Shown here piece after piece: positions 14,206 through 31,597 of a stretch of 39,182 bases of DNA. The translations under genes and the position numbers were made by a program. Below the pieces are notes generated by a model. The model did no database searches. It was given only the letters and a program-made list of their open reading frames with translations, and had not been told where the DNA came from. The stretch lies in the UHGV virus genome UHGV-0337819; one strand, 5' to 3'. Source of the DNA: a virus. Each line of letters opens with the position of its first letter. The stretch's first letter is position 1.

Positions 14206-15360
14206 TTAAAAGCCGATGTATTTTGATAGTTTTTCGGTAGTTTTTTCTTTTCCATCATTTGTTAGATGTGTATAAGTATCTAAAGTTGTTTTTATGTTTG
14301 CATGTCCTAATCGTTCCTGAACTTCTTTATGATCTGCACCAGCATAGTATAATAAAGATGCATGCGTGTGTCTAAATCCGTGAAGCCCAATGTTTGGTAA
14401 GTTAGCCTTTTTACGATAAATATTATATCTATCTGTAATAGCTTGATTTATTGTAAATTCATTTTCTTCATTGGTGAAAATACGTGAGGGTTGTGTATAA
14501 CCAAGTTTAAGAAGATATTTTTTTTGCTCTAATTTCCATTTTTTTAAGATAGTTATTGTTTTTGCATCTAATATTAGTGTTCTGTTTGATTTTTTTGTTT
14601 TTGGAGTATTTGATACATAATAATGGTCAGATTTAGCAATTGTTTTGTTGATTTGTAGTTCACCAGTTTTAATGTTTAAATCGTCCCAAGTAAGAGCTAA
14701 CAACTCCCCTATCCTACATCCACTAAAAGCTAATAATCTGAATAATGTATAATCTCTTATTGTAATGTAGGTACTTTCGCTTTGTTCAATACTTTTTAAA
14801 AATATTTGAAGTTGATCTTTTGTATAAAATTTAATTTTCTTTTCTGATGTAATAATATCTTGATTTTTAGGAACTATTACATTAATCACTGGGTTTTGAT
14901 TGGTAACCCCTATGTTAATAGCGAATTTGAAGACTTGATTCATATAATTTATAAAAAGGGGATATTGTTTTGAACTACCTTTTGAATGCCATGTATTCAC
15001 GATTTTCTGACAATAAGCAGTTGAAATTTTTGATATTTCAATTTTTCCAAATGAAGGTAGTATGTGTTTTCTGAAGATTATTTCTGTTCGAGAGTAGCTA
15101 CTTTCTTTTACGGTATTTTTATAATTTTCTAGCCACATAAATGCTACTTCTTGGAATGTTATATTAGTGGAAGAGGGAATGCCATTTTTTTGAATTTCCA
15201 TTTCTAACCTTGCTAATGCAATTTTAGCCTCTTTTTGAGTGCGAAATCCTCTCTTAGTTGTATACTTCTTTTTTCCAGTTAGCGGATCGGTACCAAGATA
15301 TGTTTTGAAGTACCATGCTTTTTCACCATTTTTCTTTTGATATTGTTTTATCATTGCCAT
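14206..15360 (-). CDS. int: tyrosine-type site-specific integrase
   Basis: 384 aa. C-terminal catalytic region HGFRHTHASLL...HANIKTTLDTYTHL carries the R...HxxR...Y signature of tyrosine recombinases. N-terminal SAM-like arm-binding domain. Confidence 0.9.
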   Translation of the reverse strand: MAMIKQYQKKNGEKAWYFKTYLGTDPLTGKKKYTTKRGFRTQKEAKIALARLEMEIQKNGIPSSTNITFQEVAFMWLENYKNTVKESSYSRTEIIFRKHILPSFGKIEISKISTAYCQKIVNTWHSKGSSKQYPLFINYMNQVFKFAINIGVTNQNPVINVIVPKNQDIITSEKKIKFYTKDQLQIFLKSIEQSESTYITIRDYTLFRLLAFSGCRIGELLALTWDDLNIKTGELQINKTIAKSDHYYVSNTPKTKKSNRTLILDAKTITILKKWKLEQKKYLLKLGYTQPSRIFTNEENEFTINQAITDRYNIYRKKANLPNIGLHGFRHTHASLLYYAGADHKEVQERLGHANIKTTLDTYTHLTNDGKEKTTEKLSKYIGF

Positions 15361-28551: not shown

Positions 28552-28968
28552 TTGATTCAATTGTTAAAAGAAGTTGATTTCAGTCAGACTAGAGCCAATG
28601 CGAGAGCCGTGTTGAAAAATTTTAGACGTTTGGACCGAATAGCTGGTCGTTCCTTAGTAGATGTTCGATCACCAATCATTACAGACATGCCAAAAGGTAT
28701 AAAGCATGGCAACAAAGCAGAAGATGCGTTGATCCAGATGATTGATGTCGAAGTAGAGCGTGATGCAATCCTAACGGCTTTGATGTCACTAAGCATTATA
28801 AGTCGTCAAATTCTTCACTACAGTTTTTGCGTGCAGGACCATTACTCTAATTACAAGATTGCTAGAGAAGTCGGCTATTCCGAAAGAAGTATTCAACGCA
28901 TGAAATCAGAAGCTTTGATTGAATTCGCAGAAGCTTACCGCAATGGAAAAATAATTGCATATAAATAA
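28552..28968 (+). CDS. arpU: ArpU-family late-gene transcriptional regulator
   Basis: 138 aa. N-terminus LLKEVDFSQTRANARAVLKNFRRLDRIAG. Size and position (last gene of the early/replication block, before the packaging module) match ArpU/RinA-type phage late activators. Confidence 0.65.
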   Translation: MIQLLKEVDFSQTRANARAVLKNFRRLDRIAGRSLVDVRSPIITDMPKGIKHGNKAEDALIQMIDVEVERDAILTALMSLSIISRQILHYSFCVQDHYSNYKIAREVGYSERSIQRMKSEALIEFAEAYRNGKIIAYK

Positions 28969-28973
28969 AATTT

Positions 28974-29002
28974 TTGGCGGTTTTTTGGCGGAAAGTTGGC
29001 GG
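28974..29002 (+). repeat. three direct TTGGCGG repeats with exact 11-bp periodicity
   Basis: TTGGCGG at 28974-28980, 28985-28991 and 28996-29002. Each is preceded by a T-run. They start 6 bp after the ArpU stop. Confidence 0.6.
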
Positions 29003-30118
29003 TTTTTATCAATATTTAGATGTTATTATGGTAGTGTCGAAAGATAAGGAGACGAGGGTAAGGCATGCATTACCTATCTTAGCTCCGTTTCGCTTATCTT
29101 TTGAGGCTACCTATAAAAAATAAAGAATAAGGATGTGGAAAGTCCAGTTCTTTCTGTCTCGTTTAGTCTAGGTAGCAAATATTGCAATAAACTTGGCATT
29201 AAGCTTACACGTAGACGTACGCCGAAAGCACTTGTCAAGATAGCGCTATGTAGTTTGCAATGATCACTCACAAATCATACGTTCTCAAACTAAAGAAATG
29301 AGGTGTAATTCCTCTCTCTTTTTTCTACAGGTTTGTGAGTGATTACTATTAAAAATTGAAAAATCAATAGATTTAAACCTAGTGAAGAGCATTTGAACAA
29401 TGTGCTAGGGTAGTATGGGATAAGTCGATAACTAAAATGAATTGGGATACTGATTGATTTTAGTGGTGGATTTTACAGCAATGTAAAAAGGGCTAATAGT
29501 AAAAGCTATTAATCGCAAAGTACTACGTGGAATTTGTGCAGGTGTAAGGTACGAAACTTTCGGGCGTGACAATAGACGCTCCAGTGGAGAATAATCTAAG
29601 TTAGGTGGAAGTGTGAGAAGCTTGGCAGACCTTAGAAACCTCAAACCAAGCGCTTTGCAGAGAAACTGAGAAATCAGTGTTTAACGAAAGAAGTCGGTAC
29701 GAGTAGCTTAATGCAGCAATTATTTACAGATGACAAATAATAAAAATGGGACTCTTATGTAAATGCTGAATGTTCAAGTGAAAGTTATTAGCCGGTAGAG
29801 CTAGATCATACAGAAAAAGCAAAGAGAAGCTATTGGGTAGCGCCCGATAGTTCAGCCTCTTTGGGTATGTGACTGAATAACACTGTAAACAAAGGAAGCA
29901 GGAAGAAAAGCCTAAATCTGTTGATTTTTGAGTTTTTAATTATCGCTGTGGCGGAAGTAGAGAGACGCAAAGGTGTAGATAGTGAGCGTAAGGCGCACTA
30001 TTGAGACCTTGTACAAAACTAGAGAGGGCTAGTGCATGAGTGGTGCAATTCCACTCCAGCGATATTAAGATTGCGGTAGACAATCTTAAAAATGGCATAA
30101 TGGGAAAATCCTTTCGGT

Positions 30119-30189
30119 TGGCGTGTAGCATCTGGGATGCAACGAGCATATTGCGAGATAAGAAGCAGGTTCGATTCCTGCCACGCCAA
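30119..30189 (+). other. tRNA-like element: 7-bp acceptor stem plus canonical T-arm, but no recognisable D or anticodon arm
   Basis: TGGCGTG (30119-30125) pairs perfectly with CACGCCA (30182-30188). T-arm is GCAGG-TTCGATT-CCTGC (30165-30181), with the canonical TTCGA T-loop. Discriminator A at 30189; no encoded CCA. The interior holds only the hairpin GCATC-TGG-GATGC. Confidence 0.45.
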
Positions 30190-30357
30190 TAGGTAGCTTT
30201 GCTACTTAATAAAAGAATCGTCAATAGATGTTTCTTACTTTAACGGTCGGTTCACCTCCTTCGGAACAGCCAGCCTGCGAAACAGGATAAAGTGGCTAGC
30301 AACCTAGTATTGCTAAATAAGTGTTAGATTGGCTAGGCAGTCTAACATAAATCTTTA

Positions 30358-30389
30358 GACTACTCAATATAAATGAGTGGTCTTTTTTT
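30358..30389 (+). terminator. rho-independent terminator
   Basis: GACTACTCA (30358-30366), loop ATATAAA, TGAGTGGTC (30374-30382; one G-U pair), then TTTTTTT (30383-30389). Confidence 0.6.
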
Positions 30390-30547
30390 GTACATAAAAA
30401 GCCACTAGACCCAGTCTAGTGGCTAGGTAGCATTCGTGCACAATATTTTTTGATTGCTATTTACAAAAAGGAGTTGCTACCTATGAATAGTATATCAAGA
30501 AGTGATTTATTGAATCAAGTACATAAAAACAACTAGGAGGGAAAAAC

Positions 30548-30811: not shown

Positions 30812-31597
30812 ATGGCAAAGTACACAGAGTGGCTAACCGATGAAGGGTTAATCAAAATCGAAGGATGGGCACGAGATGGCCTCATCGATAAGCAGATAGC
30901 CCAGAATATCGGGGTAGCTTATTCAACTTTCAGAGAATGGGTAAAAAAATTTCCAGCACTTTCGGCATCCTTAAAAAGAGGAAAAGAAGTTGTTGATAGA
31001 CAAGTTGAAAATGCTTTGTTTAAAAGTGCTATAGGATACGAATACACTGAAATTACTAAAGAAAGAATGGCAGATAACGGGCAAAAGAAACGACATAATG
31101 GTGAATCATCTTTGACAGAAGAAGAGTGGGAAACAGCACTTGCTTATTTTAATTACAGTTGTGCATATTGTGGTAATTCAGATGAGATGACTAAAGACCA
31201 TCTTGACCCATTAAAAAATGGCGGCGAGTTGACTTTTTCAAATGTAGTTCCTGCATGTCGTTCTTGTAATTCAAGCAAAAAGGATCATCAATGGCTTTCG
31301 TGGTATCAAAACCAAGACTTTTACGACAGATACAAAGCAAATAAAATCACTGATTATATATCATTCGTGTTAAGCTTTCCGAAAAAAGAAGAAAACACAG
31401 AGCTAGTTGTTACAAAAGAAATAACTAAATTGGTAGCCCCTAATCCAACTGCGGCTATTTTCTGGTTGAAAAATAGAAAGCCAGACGAATGGCGAGATCG
31501 AAAAGAAACTCAAATTTCTGGCGAAATGTCTGTTAGCAATCCATTCACTAACTTATCTGAAGAAGAATTAAGAAGGTTAGCTAAAGATGATGGATAA
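30812..31597 (+). CDS. terS: terminase small subunit with an inserted HNH endonuclease domain (TerS-HNH fusion)
   Basis: 261 aa. The N-terminal ~80 aa are an HTH of the TerS DNA-binding type (GWARDGLIDKQIAQNIGVAYSTFREWVKK...KEVVDRQVENALFKSAIG). The central HNH core is CAYCGNSDEMTKDHLDPLKNGGELTFSNVVPACRSCNSSKKDH. The C-terminus (AAIFWLKNRKPDEWRDRKE) matches the conserved TerS tail. Its stop overlaps the TerL start. Confidence 0.55.
   Translation: MAKYTEWLTDEGLIKIEGWARDGLIDKQIAQNIGVAYSTFREWVKKFPALSASLKRGKEVVDRQVENALFKSAIGYEYTEITKERMADNGQKKRHNGESSLTEEEWETALAYFNYSCAYCGNSDEMTKDHLDPLKNGGELTFSNVVPACRSCNSSKKDHQWLSWYQNQDFYDRYKANKITDYISFVLSFPKKEENTELVVTKEITKLVAPNPTAAIFWLKNRKPDEWRDRKETQISGEMSVSNPFTNLSEEELRRLAKDDG

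Follow-up and report, generated by a model that had tools for sequence, protein, structure and literature searches.

Why does a tRNA-like sequence with a degenerate anticodon arm stand in the late region of a phage, a short distance behind a large structured RNA? This question is raised by the UHGV virus genome UHGV-0337819, a temperate siphovirus-type genome whose 39,182 nucleotides (nt) are here called the window. It concerns a 71-nt stretch designated element R, which begins 188 nt 3' of the end of a full-length ROOL RNA. ROOL and GOLLD RNAs are found near tRNAs and are possibly co-transcribed with them (PMC5737381, PMC12286853). Their link to tRNAs has so far been noted as genomic proximity only. 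The window sharpens this link: In a temperate Enterococcus phage, tRNA mimics are located 11 nt (element L) and 188 nt (element R) after ROOL. Judged by its sequence, R is a tRNA-derived, non-decoding mimic, a homologue of phage genes designated 'tRNA-Arg' whose anticodon arm is nevertheless not that of a decoding tRNA. The reading favoured here, with a probability of about 0.45, is that R has been kept, together with L, as a non-decoding tRNA module that would be processed by RNase P and RNase Z and would define ends within a late non-coding transcript.

Fold of element R

R has a 7/7 Watson-Crick acceptor stem, a canonical T arm with a UUCRANY loop and a discriminator A. These features had already been listed in an earlier reading of the letters alone (the sequence-only reading), were confirmed and agree with the definition of a tRNA, whereas the anticodon arm does not. 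For the interior, the same reading had proposed neither a D arm nor an anticodon stem-loop, which holds in part. The 5-bp/3-nt hairpin, which starts at nucleotide 10 directly after U8-A9 and carries GG in its loop, reads as a shrunken D arm. The supposedly unpaired stretch with its CGAG direct repeat is not unpaired: The repeat forms a non-canonical arm of 17 nt at the anticodon-arm position. Here, the two CGAG copies oppose each other (C-G, G.A, A.G, G-C) and are followed by a C-G pair, i.e. C30143-G30157, tandem G.A/A.G, G30146-C30154 and C30147-G30153 enclose a 5-nt loop. The same arm is present in the minimum free energy (MFE) fold. What stands is that R has no 7-nt anticodon loop, no U33 and no purine 37, and that the stem of the arm contains two G.A mismatches. 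Drawn alternatively with CAUAUUG as its loop, the arm has A33 and U37. The spacing of the cloverleaf is intact (7-2-13-1-17-6-17-7-1). Of the tertiary positions of the D arm, R has U8 and GG but neither A14 nor A21, and the D loop comprises only 3-5 nt. The MFE fold (-25.1 kcal/mol) is a cloverleaf with z = -2.3 against shuffles. An alternative interior fold, GCAA...TTGC, was dropped: It is lost in ATAGC variants.

In its default mode, ARAGORN called neither a tRNA nor a transfer-messenger RNA (tmRNA) across the whole window. Lowered-threshold, intron, mitochondrial and tmRNA modes applied to 29900-30450 returned implausible calls only, e.g. one with a 4-nt 'anticodon'; even a relaxed search, as envisaged by the sequence-only reading, yields no valid anticodon arm. 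The Rfam tRNA model RF00005 matches exactly 30119-30189 with 33.5 bits, a marginal pass of the gathering cut-off of 29 bits (E-value 0.0021 over the window and 7.5e-5 in a local search). This score comes from the acceptor stem, 'UAGC' and the T arm, with the middle hardly aligned. A scanner for a T arm combined with a 7-bp acceptor stem also picks up R, at an expectation of 0.14 hits per shuffled window. Since near-identical copies occur in many phage contigs, a chance match is excluded. R is tRNA-derived and, because it lacks U33, purine 37, a 7-nt loop and A14 and is not called by ARAGORN, very unlikely to decode, as had been supposed at first reading.

Relatives of R and their conservation

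BLAST against phage records matched the R region in Enterococcus phages only. In about 50 Enterococcus phage contigs, a homologue of R is found in the same slot, with the late activator gene on one side and the terminase genes on the other. When viral contigs were scanned with a pattern (single loci are cited by number, e.g. L052), 46 R loci in two classes were obtained: class A (73 nt, the 'tRNA-Arg' type) and class B (71 nt, the type of the window), the latter with five sequence variants including that of the window. From later scans, class B variants with U8->A (L090, L097, L141) and, in one case, G3.U70 (L052) were obtained, as well as a class C (L067), in which the R acceptor and T arms are combined with a canonical D arm and an anticodon loop zipped into a 6-bp stem plus tetraloop. 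Three loci (L072, L087, L139) carry elements with different acceptor sequences in the slot of R. The family is narrow, since a looser scan with an unconstrained acceptor delivered one extra R locus only.

The homologue in VEsP-1 is annotated as tRNA-Arg-TCG, and ARAGORN calls those of phiFL2A and phiFL3B tRNA-Arg (UCG or ACG). These phages belong to the Phifelvirus group, and ROOL is absent from the three loci. Their 'tRNA-Arg' sequences reach low Rfam scores of 37-43 bits. Acceptor, D stem, T arm, discriminator, 3' hairpin and tail of R and the phage 'tRNA-Arg' are identical or nearly so. R differs in a D loop that is 2 nt shorter, at 7 of 17 anticodon-arm positions and in the lack of an anticodon loop. 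Because R and the same-slot homologues called tRNA-Arg are identical in the sequences of acceptor, D stem and T arm, R would descend from a phage tRNA gene that lost decoding and kept the structural mimicry of a tRNA. No special likeness was found between R and the tRNAs of the lytic phage EFDG1 (38-47/71 identical). The canonical tRNA-Asn of viral contig L045, which shares the R acceptor, D and T stems, was discarded as a clue to ancestry; it says little, because the match of the stems was imposed by the search pattern.

Could R be an unusual decoding tRNA, e.g. a tRNA-Arg variant with an anticodon loop that evades host anticodon nucleases? Phage tRNAs with altered, nuclease-resistant anticodon loops are known. 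Furthermore, relatives are called tRNA-Arg(UCG/ACG), one of them is annotated as such, and R passes the Rfam tRNA cut-off. However, the Rfam scores of the 'tRNA-Arg' relatives (37-46 bits) compare with 51-74 bits for ordinary phage tRNAs, and the class A 'anticodon' varies between TCG, ACG and TTG. This means that it is the least constrained part, the opposite of what is seen in a decoder. Since class A has in addition U37, a pairable C/U32-G38 and an A.A at 27-43, the annotated tRNA-Arg copies look poorly suited to decoding, and the annotation of R homologues as 'tRNA-Arg' is probably functionally wrong. For the window copy, with the degenerate arm described above and without A14 and an ARAGORN call, decoding is close to refuted; we consider such a function very improbable.

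The exact class B variant is conserved in at least 21 contigs. Over 15 distinct class B contexts, mean pairwise identity amounts to 97.5% in R, 98% in hp3, the hairpin immediately 3' of R, and 94% in the 30 nt after hp3, as compared to 75% in the 5' flank (-55 to -1) and 60% at +51 to +130. By this contrast with the variable surroundings, a conserved cassette made up of R, hp3 and the tail stands out. In 27/27 R contexts, the discriminator is followed by T, never by C or CCA. Among 15 distinct R sequences, pairing is found at 100% in the acceptor stem, 98% in the D stem, 100% in the T stem and 57% in the helix at the anticodon position; substitutions in the former three stems are pairing-compatible in six cases and disruptive in one. 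When 12 distinct top halves from all classes are considered, all pairs are formed (100%) and 7/12 have changed on both sides, although L072, L087 and L139 were chosen for this set partly because they pair (ascertainment bias) and covariation in such a shallow family rests on few events. One path leads from G3-C70 over G.U to A-U. The G-C closing pair of the non-canonical arm covaries as well, with A-U and G.U in relatives.

These data bear on the possibility that R is a neutral relic, i.e. a decaying phage tRNA pseudogene carried in a mosaic non-coding island, transcribed or not, without a function of its own, which is rather unlikely. The eroded anticodon arm, the lost A14, the U8->A exchange in some copies and the shortened D loop would all fit. 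So would the fact that most class B copies, among them those of L005, L012, L015, L016, L021 and L036, are below the Rfam tRNA cut-off and that whole modules are gained and lost, as seen from loci without R or without L and from deletions whose ends meet at short homologies. In addition, low overall divergence limits the power of conservation tests. However, R is 97.5% identical between far more variable flanks, substitutions in the acceptor, D and T stems are almost all compatible with pairing, decay is restricted to the sole arm that processing enzymes ignore, and the same pattern is seen in independent tRNA-like families from other phage groups (see below). A one-off decayed tRNA, which the sequence-only reading had offered as an option, is weakened by the identity and the number of copies.

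Conservation might also reflect a site read as DNA: an attP core, a secondary att remnant of a host tRNA gene or a cos/pac signal upstream of terminase. Phages often integrate into tRNA genes, the slot just 5' of terS-HNH and terL is a frequent location of cos, and the conserved block of R, hp3 and tail could in principle be read as DNA. On the other hand, both halves of a tRNA are present rather than a 3' half, a distance of about 15 kb separates R from the integrase gene, compensatory substitutions maintain RNA pairing, and the slot of R between the activator gene and the terminase genes is constant. In a scan of one genome per species (GTDB), the R acceptor/D/T pattern, which misses host tRNAs with a different D stem, matched no Enterococcus chromosome; the two unrelated metagenome-assembled genomes that it did match (one archaeon, one Arenicella) are uninformative on a host donor tRNA. 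A DNA-level site is the least probable of all explanations considered, and the att remnant suggested at first reading falls with it.

R and L as candidate processing handles

RNase P gauges the acceptor/T-arm stack, for which the T loop but not the D loop is required, and also cleaves tRNA-like substrates that are no tRNAs, e.g. MALAT1 (PMC4919913). RNase Z of B. subtilis touches the acceptor stem and the T arm only, and C or CCA behind the discriminator inhibits it (PMC7479834). In Streptococcaceae (Streptococcus, Lactococcus), none of the tRNA genes encodes CCA, and maturation is performed by RNase Z (PMC8549757). R retains what RNase P, RNase Z and the CCA-adding enzyme recognize, in line with the tRNA-mimic reading made before, which had not named RNase Z. 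A processing handle is favoured because R has retained the 12-bp acceptor/T stack, the T loop, GG and U after the discriminator, and encodes no CCA. The arm that end-processing enzymes ignore is the one that has drifted in R and been replaced in L. According to this model, a late promoter would give rise to one long non-coding leader that comprises ROOL, L, hairpin hp2, R, hp3, the conserved tail and a terminator. Host RNase P would recognize the 12-bp acceptor/T helix, the T loop and the D-loop GG of R and cut at 30118/30119, RNase Z would cut after A30189, and CCA would probably be added next. R would act as a 'punctuation mark' that separates the neighbouring RNAs, sets their ends and might stabilize them to the presumable benefit of the phage.

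How does R relate to ROOL? The sequence-only reading had placed R inside a large non-coding RNA. This has to be modified: R is located outside the ROOL match, which ends at 29931, L lies between the two, and the R family also occurs without ROOL. What remains is a genuine ROOL just upstream on the same strand. Since a terminator scan of the plus strand found no terminator-like site between 29931 and 30357 and hence none from ROOL to R, and both are on the same strand, ROOL and R are probably co-transcribed. A window-like ROOL precedes R in ten loci of class B and in none of class A; it is lacking upstream in about 25 class A loci evaluated and in at least four class B loci for which more than 1.1 kb of upstream sequence is available.

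Element L is, like R, a tRNA shell without an anticodon arm, and is also picked up by the scanner for T arm and acceptor stem. The distance from the 3' end of ROOL to its start amounts to 11 nt in the window and to 14 nt in L054. In the window, it has an acceptor stem (ATCGCTG/CAGCGAT), a 6-bp T stem (GAGTGG/CCACTC) with the loop TGCAATT and a discriminator A. An insert of about 70 nt takes the place of the anticodon and variable arms. The D arm (GCGGAAGTAGAGAGACGC) is of the tRNA-Leu type and degenerate compared to the GCGGAAyAGGTAGACGC of the family; a D arm of the latter kind is a hallmark of bacterial tRNA-Leu. A scan for the T arm and the 3' acceptor strand detected the L family, with the T loop consensus TGCAAWT, in at least 120 viral contigs. 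The following numbers refer to the matches listed, among which are 63 distinct elements. Their inserts range from 0 to about 230 nt and, judged by eye, belong to many mutually unalignable types. The acceptor variants ATCGCTG, GTCACTG, ATCACTG and GTCGCTG are each accompanied by the matching 3' strand, and the four T-stem positions left free by the pattern are all paired in 67/76 unique matches. A 7-mer complementing the 3' acceptor strand is present upstream in 83/96 cases versus 1/96 after shuffling. The discriminator is followed by T in 74/75 contexts and in none by C or CCA, in spite of unrelated sequences downstream. L was also found, unannotated, in Lacticaseibacillus phages, and in large lytic phages it is located directly 3' of real tRNAs. 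It has no Rfam match and may represent an undescribed RNA family.

Further short tRNA-like families without an ARAGORN call, often in tandem after L, were observed in other Lactobacillales phage groups. They include a 64-nt GAGGCCG...CGGCCTC element with a CATATG/CATATG hairpin, 57-82-nt GCAACCG...CGGTTGC elements and 114-nt CACGAG...CTCGTG elements (L061, L081, L084 and L134 downstream of L; L073, L075, L111, L115, L116, L123 and L152; L086 and L091). Over 1.28 Mb of fetched loci, the scanner for T arm and acceptor stem produced 178 hits that are not ARAGORN tRNAs and 113 that are. In a large phage contig (L138), a tmRNA-like sequence of about 348 nt (GGGGTAGTTTTGGTTTCGAC...GGGTTCGAGTCCCGTCTACTCCA) lies directly 5' of L. 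In EFDG1, a tRNA-Met annotated 26 nt after ROOL (L053 3119-3190) scores 43 bits, has a mismatched acceptor stem and obtains no ARAGORN call.

Eukaryotic RNAs provide a parallel for such an arrangement. Like R, mascRNA from MALAT1 and the MEN-beta tRNA-like element from NEAT1 are cloverleaf mimics without a functional anticodon loop 3' of a large structured non-coding RNA. They are cleaved by RNase P and RNase Z and subsequently receive CCA (PMC4919913; bioRxiv 10.64898/2026.01.19.700226). R has both the non-decoding tRNA-like fold and the position on the same strand 3' of a large non-coding RNA in common with mascRNA. In contrast, there is no sequence relation and no shared ancestry, the setting is a phage, the cleavage of R is a prediction, and the element that abuts ROOL is L. 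If R and L are indeed processing handles, they would define the mature 3' end of ROOL and constitute a bacterial counterpart of MALAT1 and mascRNA. R provides a directly testable model of ROOL 3'-end formation and has led to the larger, apparently undescribed L family.

Bacterial non-decoding tRNA mimics are known from the tRNA-like domain of tmRNA and from the bacterial Y RNA YrlA (PMC4201824), which, like R, mimic acceptor and T arm without an anticodon arm. R differs from tmRNA by G3-C70 (G3:U70 is found in L052 only), by its contiguous 71 nt and by the lack of an mRNA-like domain. The tRNA-like module of YrlA continues, via the position of the anticodon stem, into a Ro-binding stem, whereas the 71-nt cloverleaf of R stands free. 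Arrays of real tRNAs surround the ROOL of lytic Enterococcus phages; these flanking tRNAs would parallel R if they acted in the same way. Compared to the tRNA loci reported for ROOL and GOLLD, the neighbours in the window are non-decoding tRNA-like elements, and the R family is mostly found without ROOL. A search of the literature on ROOL and RNase P, on tRNA-like elements of Enterococcus phages and on ArpU and tRNA retrieved no prior description.

Several points weigh against a processing handle, in addition to the biased choice of loci in the covariation set. Each cleavage step is a prediction. The high identity could partly reflect a recent horizontal spread of the cassette of R, hp3 and tail, and the family is confined to Enterococcus phages and little diverged. 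Nucleotides of the tertiary fold were lost (A14; U8 in L090, L097 and L141), and it is uncertain that R forms an elbow, because the 5-bp D stem leaves a 3-nt loop. In class B, conservation of the non-canonical arm (97%) equals that of the top half. Since a pure processing handle does not need this arm, R may have an additional or a different role. Nothing tRNA-like was found 5' of ROOL within the window, so the 5' end of ROOL would need another route. Moreover, some relatives do without R: In L099, L106, L130 and L151, L is joined straight to hp3, L054 contains ROOL and L without R, and L055 contains ROOL alone. Altogether, the loci display the combinations ROOL+L+R, ROOL+L, ROOL alone, module X+L+R, R alone and L fused to hp3. 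As they were gathered by searching for R or L, it would be circular to conclude that one tRNA-like element always precedes hp3.

The conserved arm would also suit a decoy or sponge: Processed and CCA-tailed R (and L) might titrate host factors that act on the body or the 3' end of tRNAs. Abortive-infection toxins by which tRNA ends are modified or cleaved (AbiEii/MenT-type nucleotidyltransferases, CapRel-type pyrophosphokinases) and tRNA-modifying or quality-control enzymes are proposed as targets. Defence toxins targeting tRNA ends exist, and the features kept in R are the acceptor end and the elbow. The late region is the context in which defences would act, and several anticodon-less families in tandem in Lactobacillales phages seem more than punctuation needs. 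However, the variation between the classes sits in the arm at the anticodon position and has no obvious tie to acceptor-end toxins. The idea is wholly speculative, and we regard it as unlikely.

Alternatively, R and L might remain attached to the 3' end of ROOL and be displayed on the exterior of a cage. According to a commentary (PMC12515178), ROOL from E. faecalis is an octameric cage as found by cryo-electron microscopy (cryo-EM; Ling et al.), and engineered 3' fusions to ROOL, among them a tRNA precursor, are tolerated and displayed radially. Furthermore, the GOLLD linker sometimes carries tRNAs (PMC12286853), and L starts 11 nt after ROOL. Against a cargo role, R lies 188 nt away from ROOL, occurs without it in all of the about 25 class A loci evaluated and in at least four class B loci, and is missing beside ROOL in L054 and L055. 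In addition, RNase P and RNase Z of Firmicutes are expected to cut any tRNA-like structure. A display on the cage is therefore quite improbable.

The handle model can be extended to a more general proposal, which is possible, if doubtful: R and L may be members of an undescribed class of tRNA shells stripped of decoding that stand singly or in tandem in late leaders of Lactobacillales phages and would use host tRNA maturation to excise, stabilize or present non-coding RNA cargo including ROOL. They might in addition be decoys for tRNA-directed defences.

The non-coding island and its neighbourhood

R is part of an interval of about 1.5 kb between the activator and terminase genes without a credible open reading frame (ORF). 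ROOL, L, hp2, R, hp3, tail and terminator are all encoded on the plus strand (Table 1).

Table 1. Features of the window and non-coding RNAs at related loci (positions refer to the window unless a locus number is given).
Feature	Position	Strand	Remarks
Integrase gene	14206-15360	-	~15 kb from R
Late transcriptional activator	28552-28968		phrog_248, ArpU/RinA-type family
TTGGCGG x3	28974-29002	+	11-nt spacing; directly 3' of late activator gene
Short hairpin + U run	~29300-29325	+	terminator-like
ROOL RNA, full length	29354-29931	+	Rfam RF03087, 268.6 bits, model positions 1-574
Element L	29942-30064	+	second tRNA-like element; starts 11 nt after ROOL
Hairpin hp2	30065-30089	+	between L and R; TTAAGATTG CGGTAGA CAATCTTAA
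Element R	30119-30189	+	71-nt non-decoding tRNA-derived cloverleaf; class B of phage 'tRNA-Arg-like' family
R acceptor stem	30119-30125 / 30182-30188	+	TGGCGTG / CACGCCA; 7/7 Watson-Crick
R U8-A9	30126-30127	+	TA
R D-position hairpin	30128-30140	+	GCATC TGG GATGC; 5-bp stem, 3-nt loop with GG; followed by a single A
R non-canonical arm	30142-30158	+	ACGAG CATATTG CGAGA; 17 nt, anticodon-arm position
R variable region	30159-30164	+	TAAGAA
R T arm	30165-30181	+	GCAGG TTCGATT CCTGC; canonical
R discriminator	30189	+	A; no encoded CCA
Hairpin hp3	30191-30207	+	immediately 3' of R; AGGTAGC TTT GCTACTT; conserved with R in classes A and B
Conserved tail	30208-30235	+	AATAAAAGAATCGTCAATAGATGTTTCT; apparently single-stranded; accompanies R and hp3
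Hairpin + T run	30357-30390	+	intrinsic terminator-like; terminator scan
Small terminase subunit	30812-31597	+	phrog_309 at both ends; HNH domain (Pfam PF01844, residues 117-158) inserted mid-protein
rli28-family small RNA	L005 10778-10957	-	RF01492
rli28-family small RNA	L012 234-413	-	RF01492
rli28-family small RNA	L036 1820-1999	-	RF01492
RatA antitoxin RNA	L005 10643-10730	+	RF01776; beside rli28-family small RNA
RatA antitoxin RNA	L036 1685-1772	+	RF01776; beside rli28-family small RNA

The TTGGCGG repeats recur in related loci; L014 has three TTAGGG repeats and an activator with a different C-terminus. The TTGGCGG repeats are probably the binding region of the activator or a late promoter that drives the island. 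The segment 29932-30395 is strongly structured (z = -5.07 against shuffles), and the cloverleaf of R survives within it. Hairpin hp2 displays compensatory changes (TTGAG.../...CTCAA) in L052, L009 and others. As its loop holds inserts of about 100 nt in L016 and L021, it is another insertion-tolerant stem. In the alignment of hp3, 98% of the cells are paired, and substitutions retain pairing, including GTGG/CCAC in L006. A search of the window for a complement of the tail CGTCAATAGATGTTTCT returned the self-match and no other site. Between the tail and the terminator at 30357-30390, which is likely the 3' end of the transcript with ROOL, L and R, additional hairpins are found.

Non-coding RNA modules of various kinds have gathered in the island. 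A conserved non-coding module X of about 230 nt (CTACAGGTTTGCAAGTGAC...TTGATTGATTG) occupies the slot of the window's ROOL just 5' of L in phiFL2A (L002 ~1090-1320), at the same position in class A loci and in L005 and L038. Module X is not matched by Rfam. As the 130 nt at its 3' end hardly vary, an analysis of consensus structure and covariation was uninformative. In class B loci without ROOL, a small RNA of the rli28 family (~145 bits) is encoded about 110 nt after R.

Downstream of the island, the gene for the small terminase subunit is followed by those for the large terminase subunit and the portal protein. The stretch from the presumed late promoter to the first late gene (30548) contains two terminator-like hairpins (~29300-29325 and 30357-30390). 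As no promoter-like site was seen after the second of them, transcription of the late genes may need read-through or antitermination across the island. A strong terminator-like hairpin on the minus strand (30400-30424) is arranged back-to-back with the plus-strand terminator. Ahead of the first late gene, there is a 17-codon ORF (30484-30537, plus strand) that has a good ribosome-binding site (AAGGAG), and this segment also occurs in phiFL1-type phages without R. The ROOL of the window shares 99% identity with that of other E. faecalis-type phage contigs and may, as we presume, be close to the ROOL-Efa used for cryo-EM.

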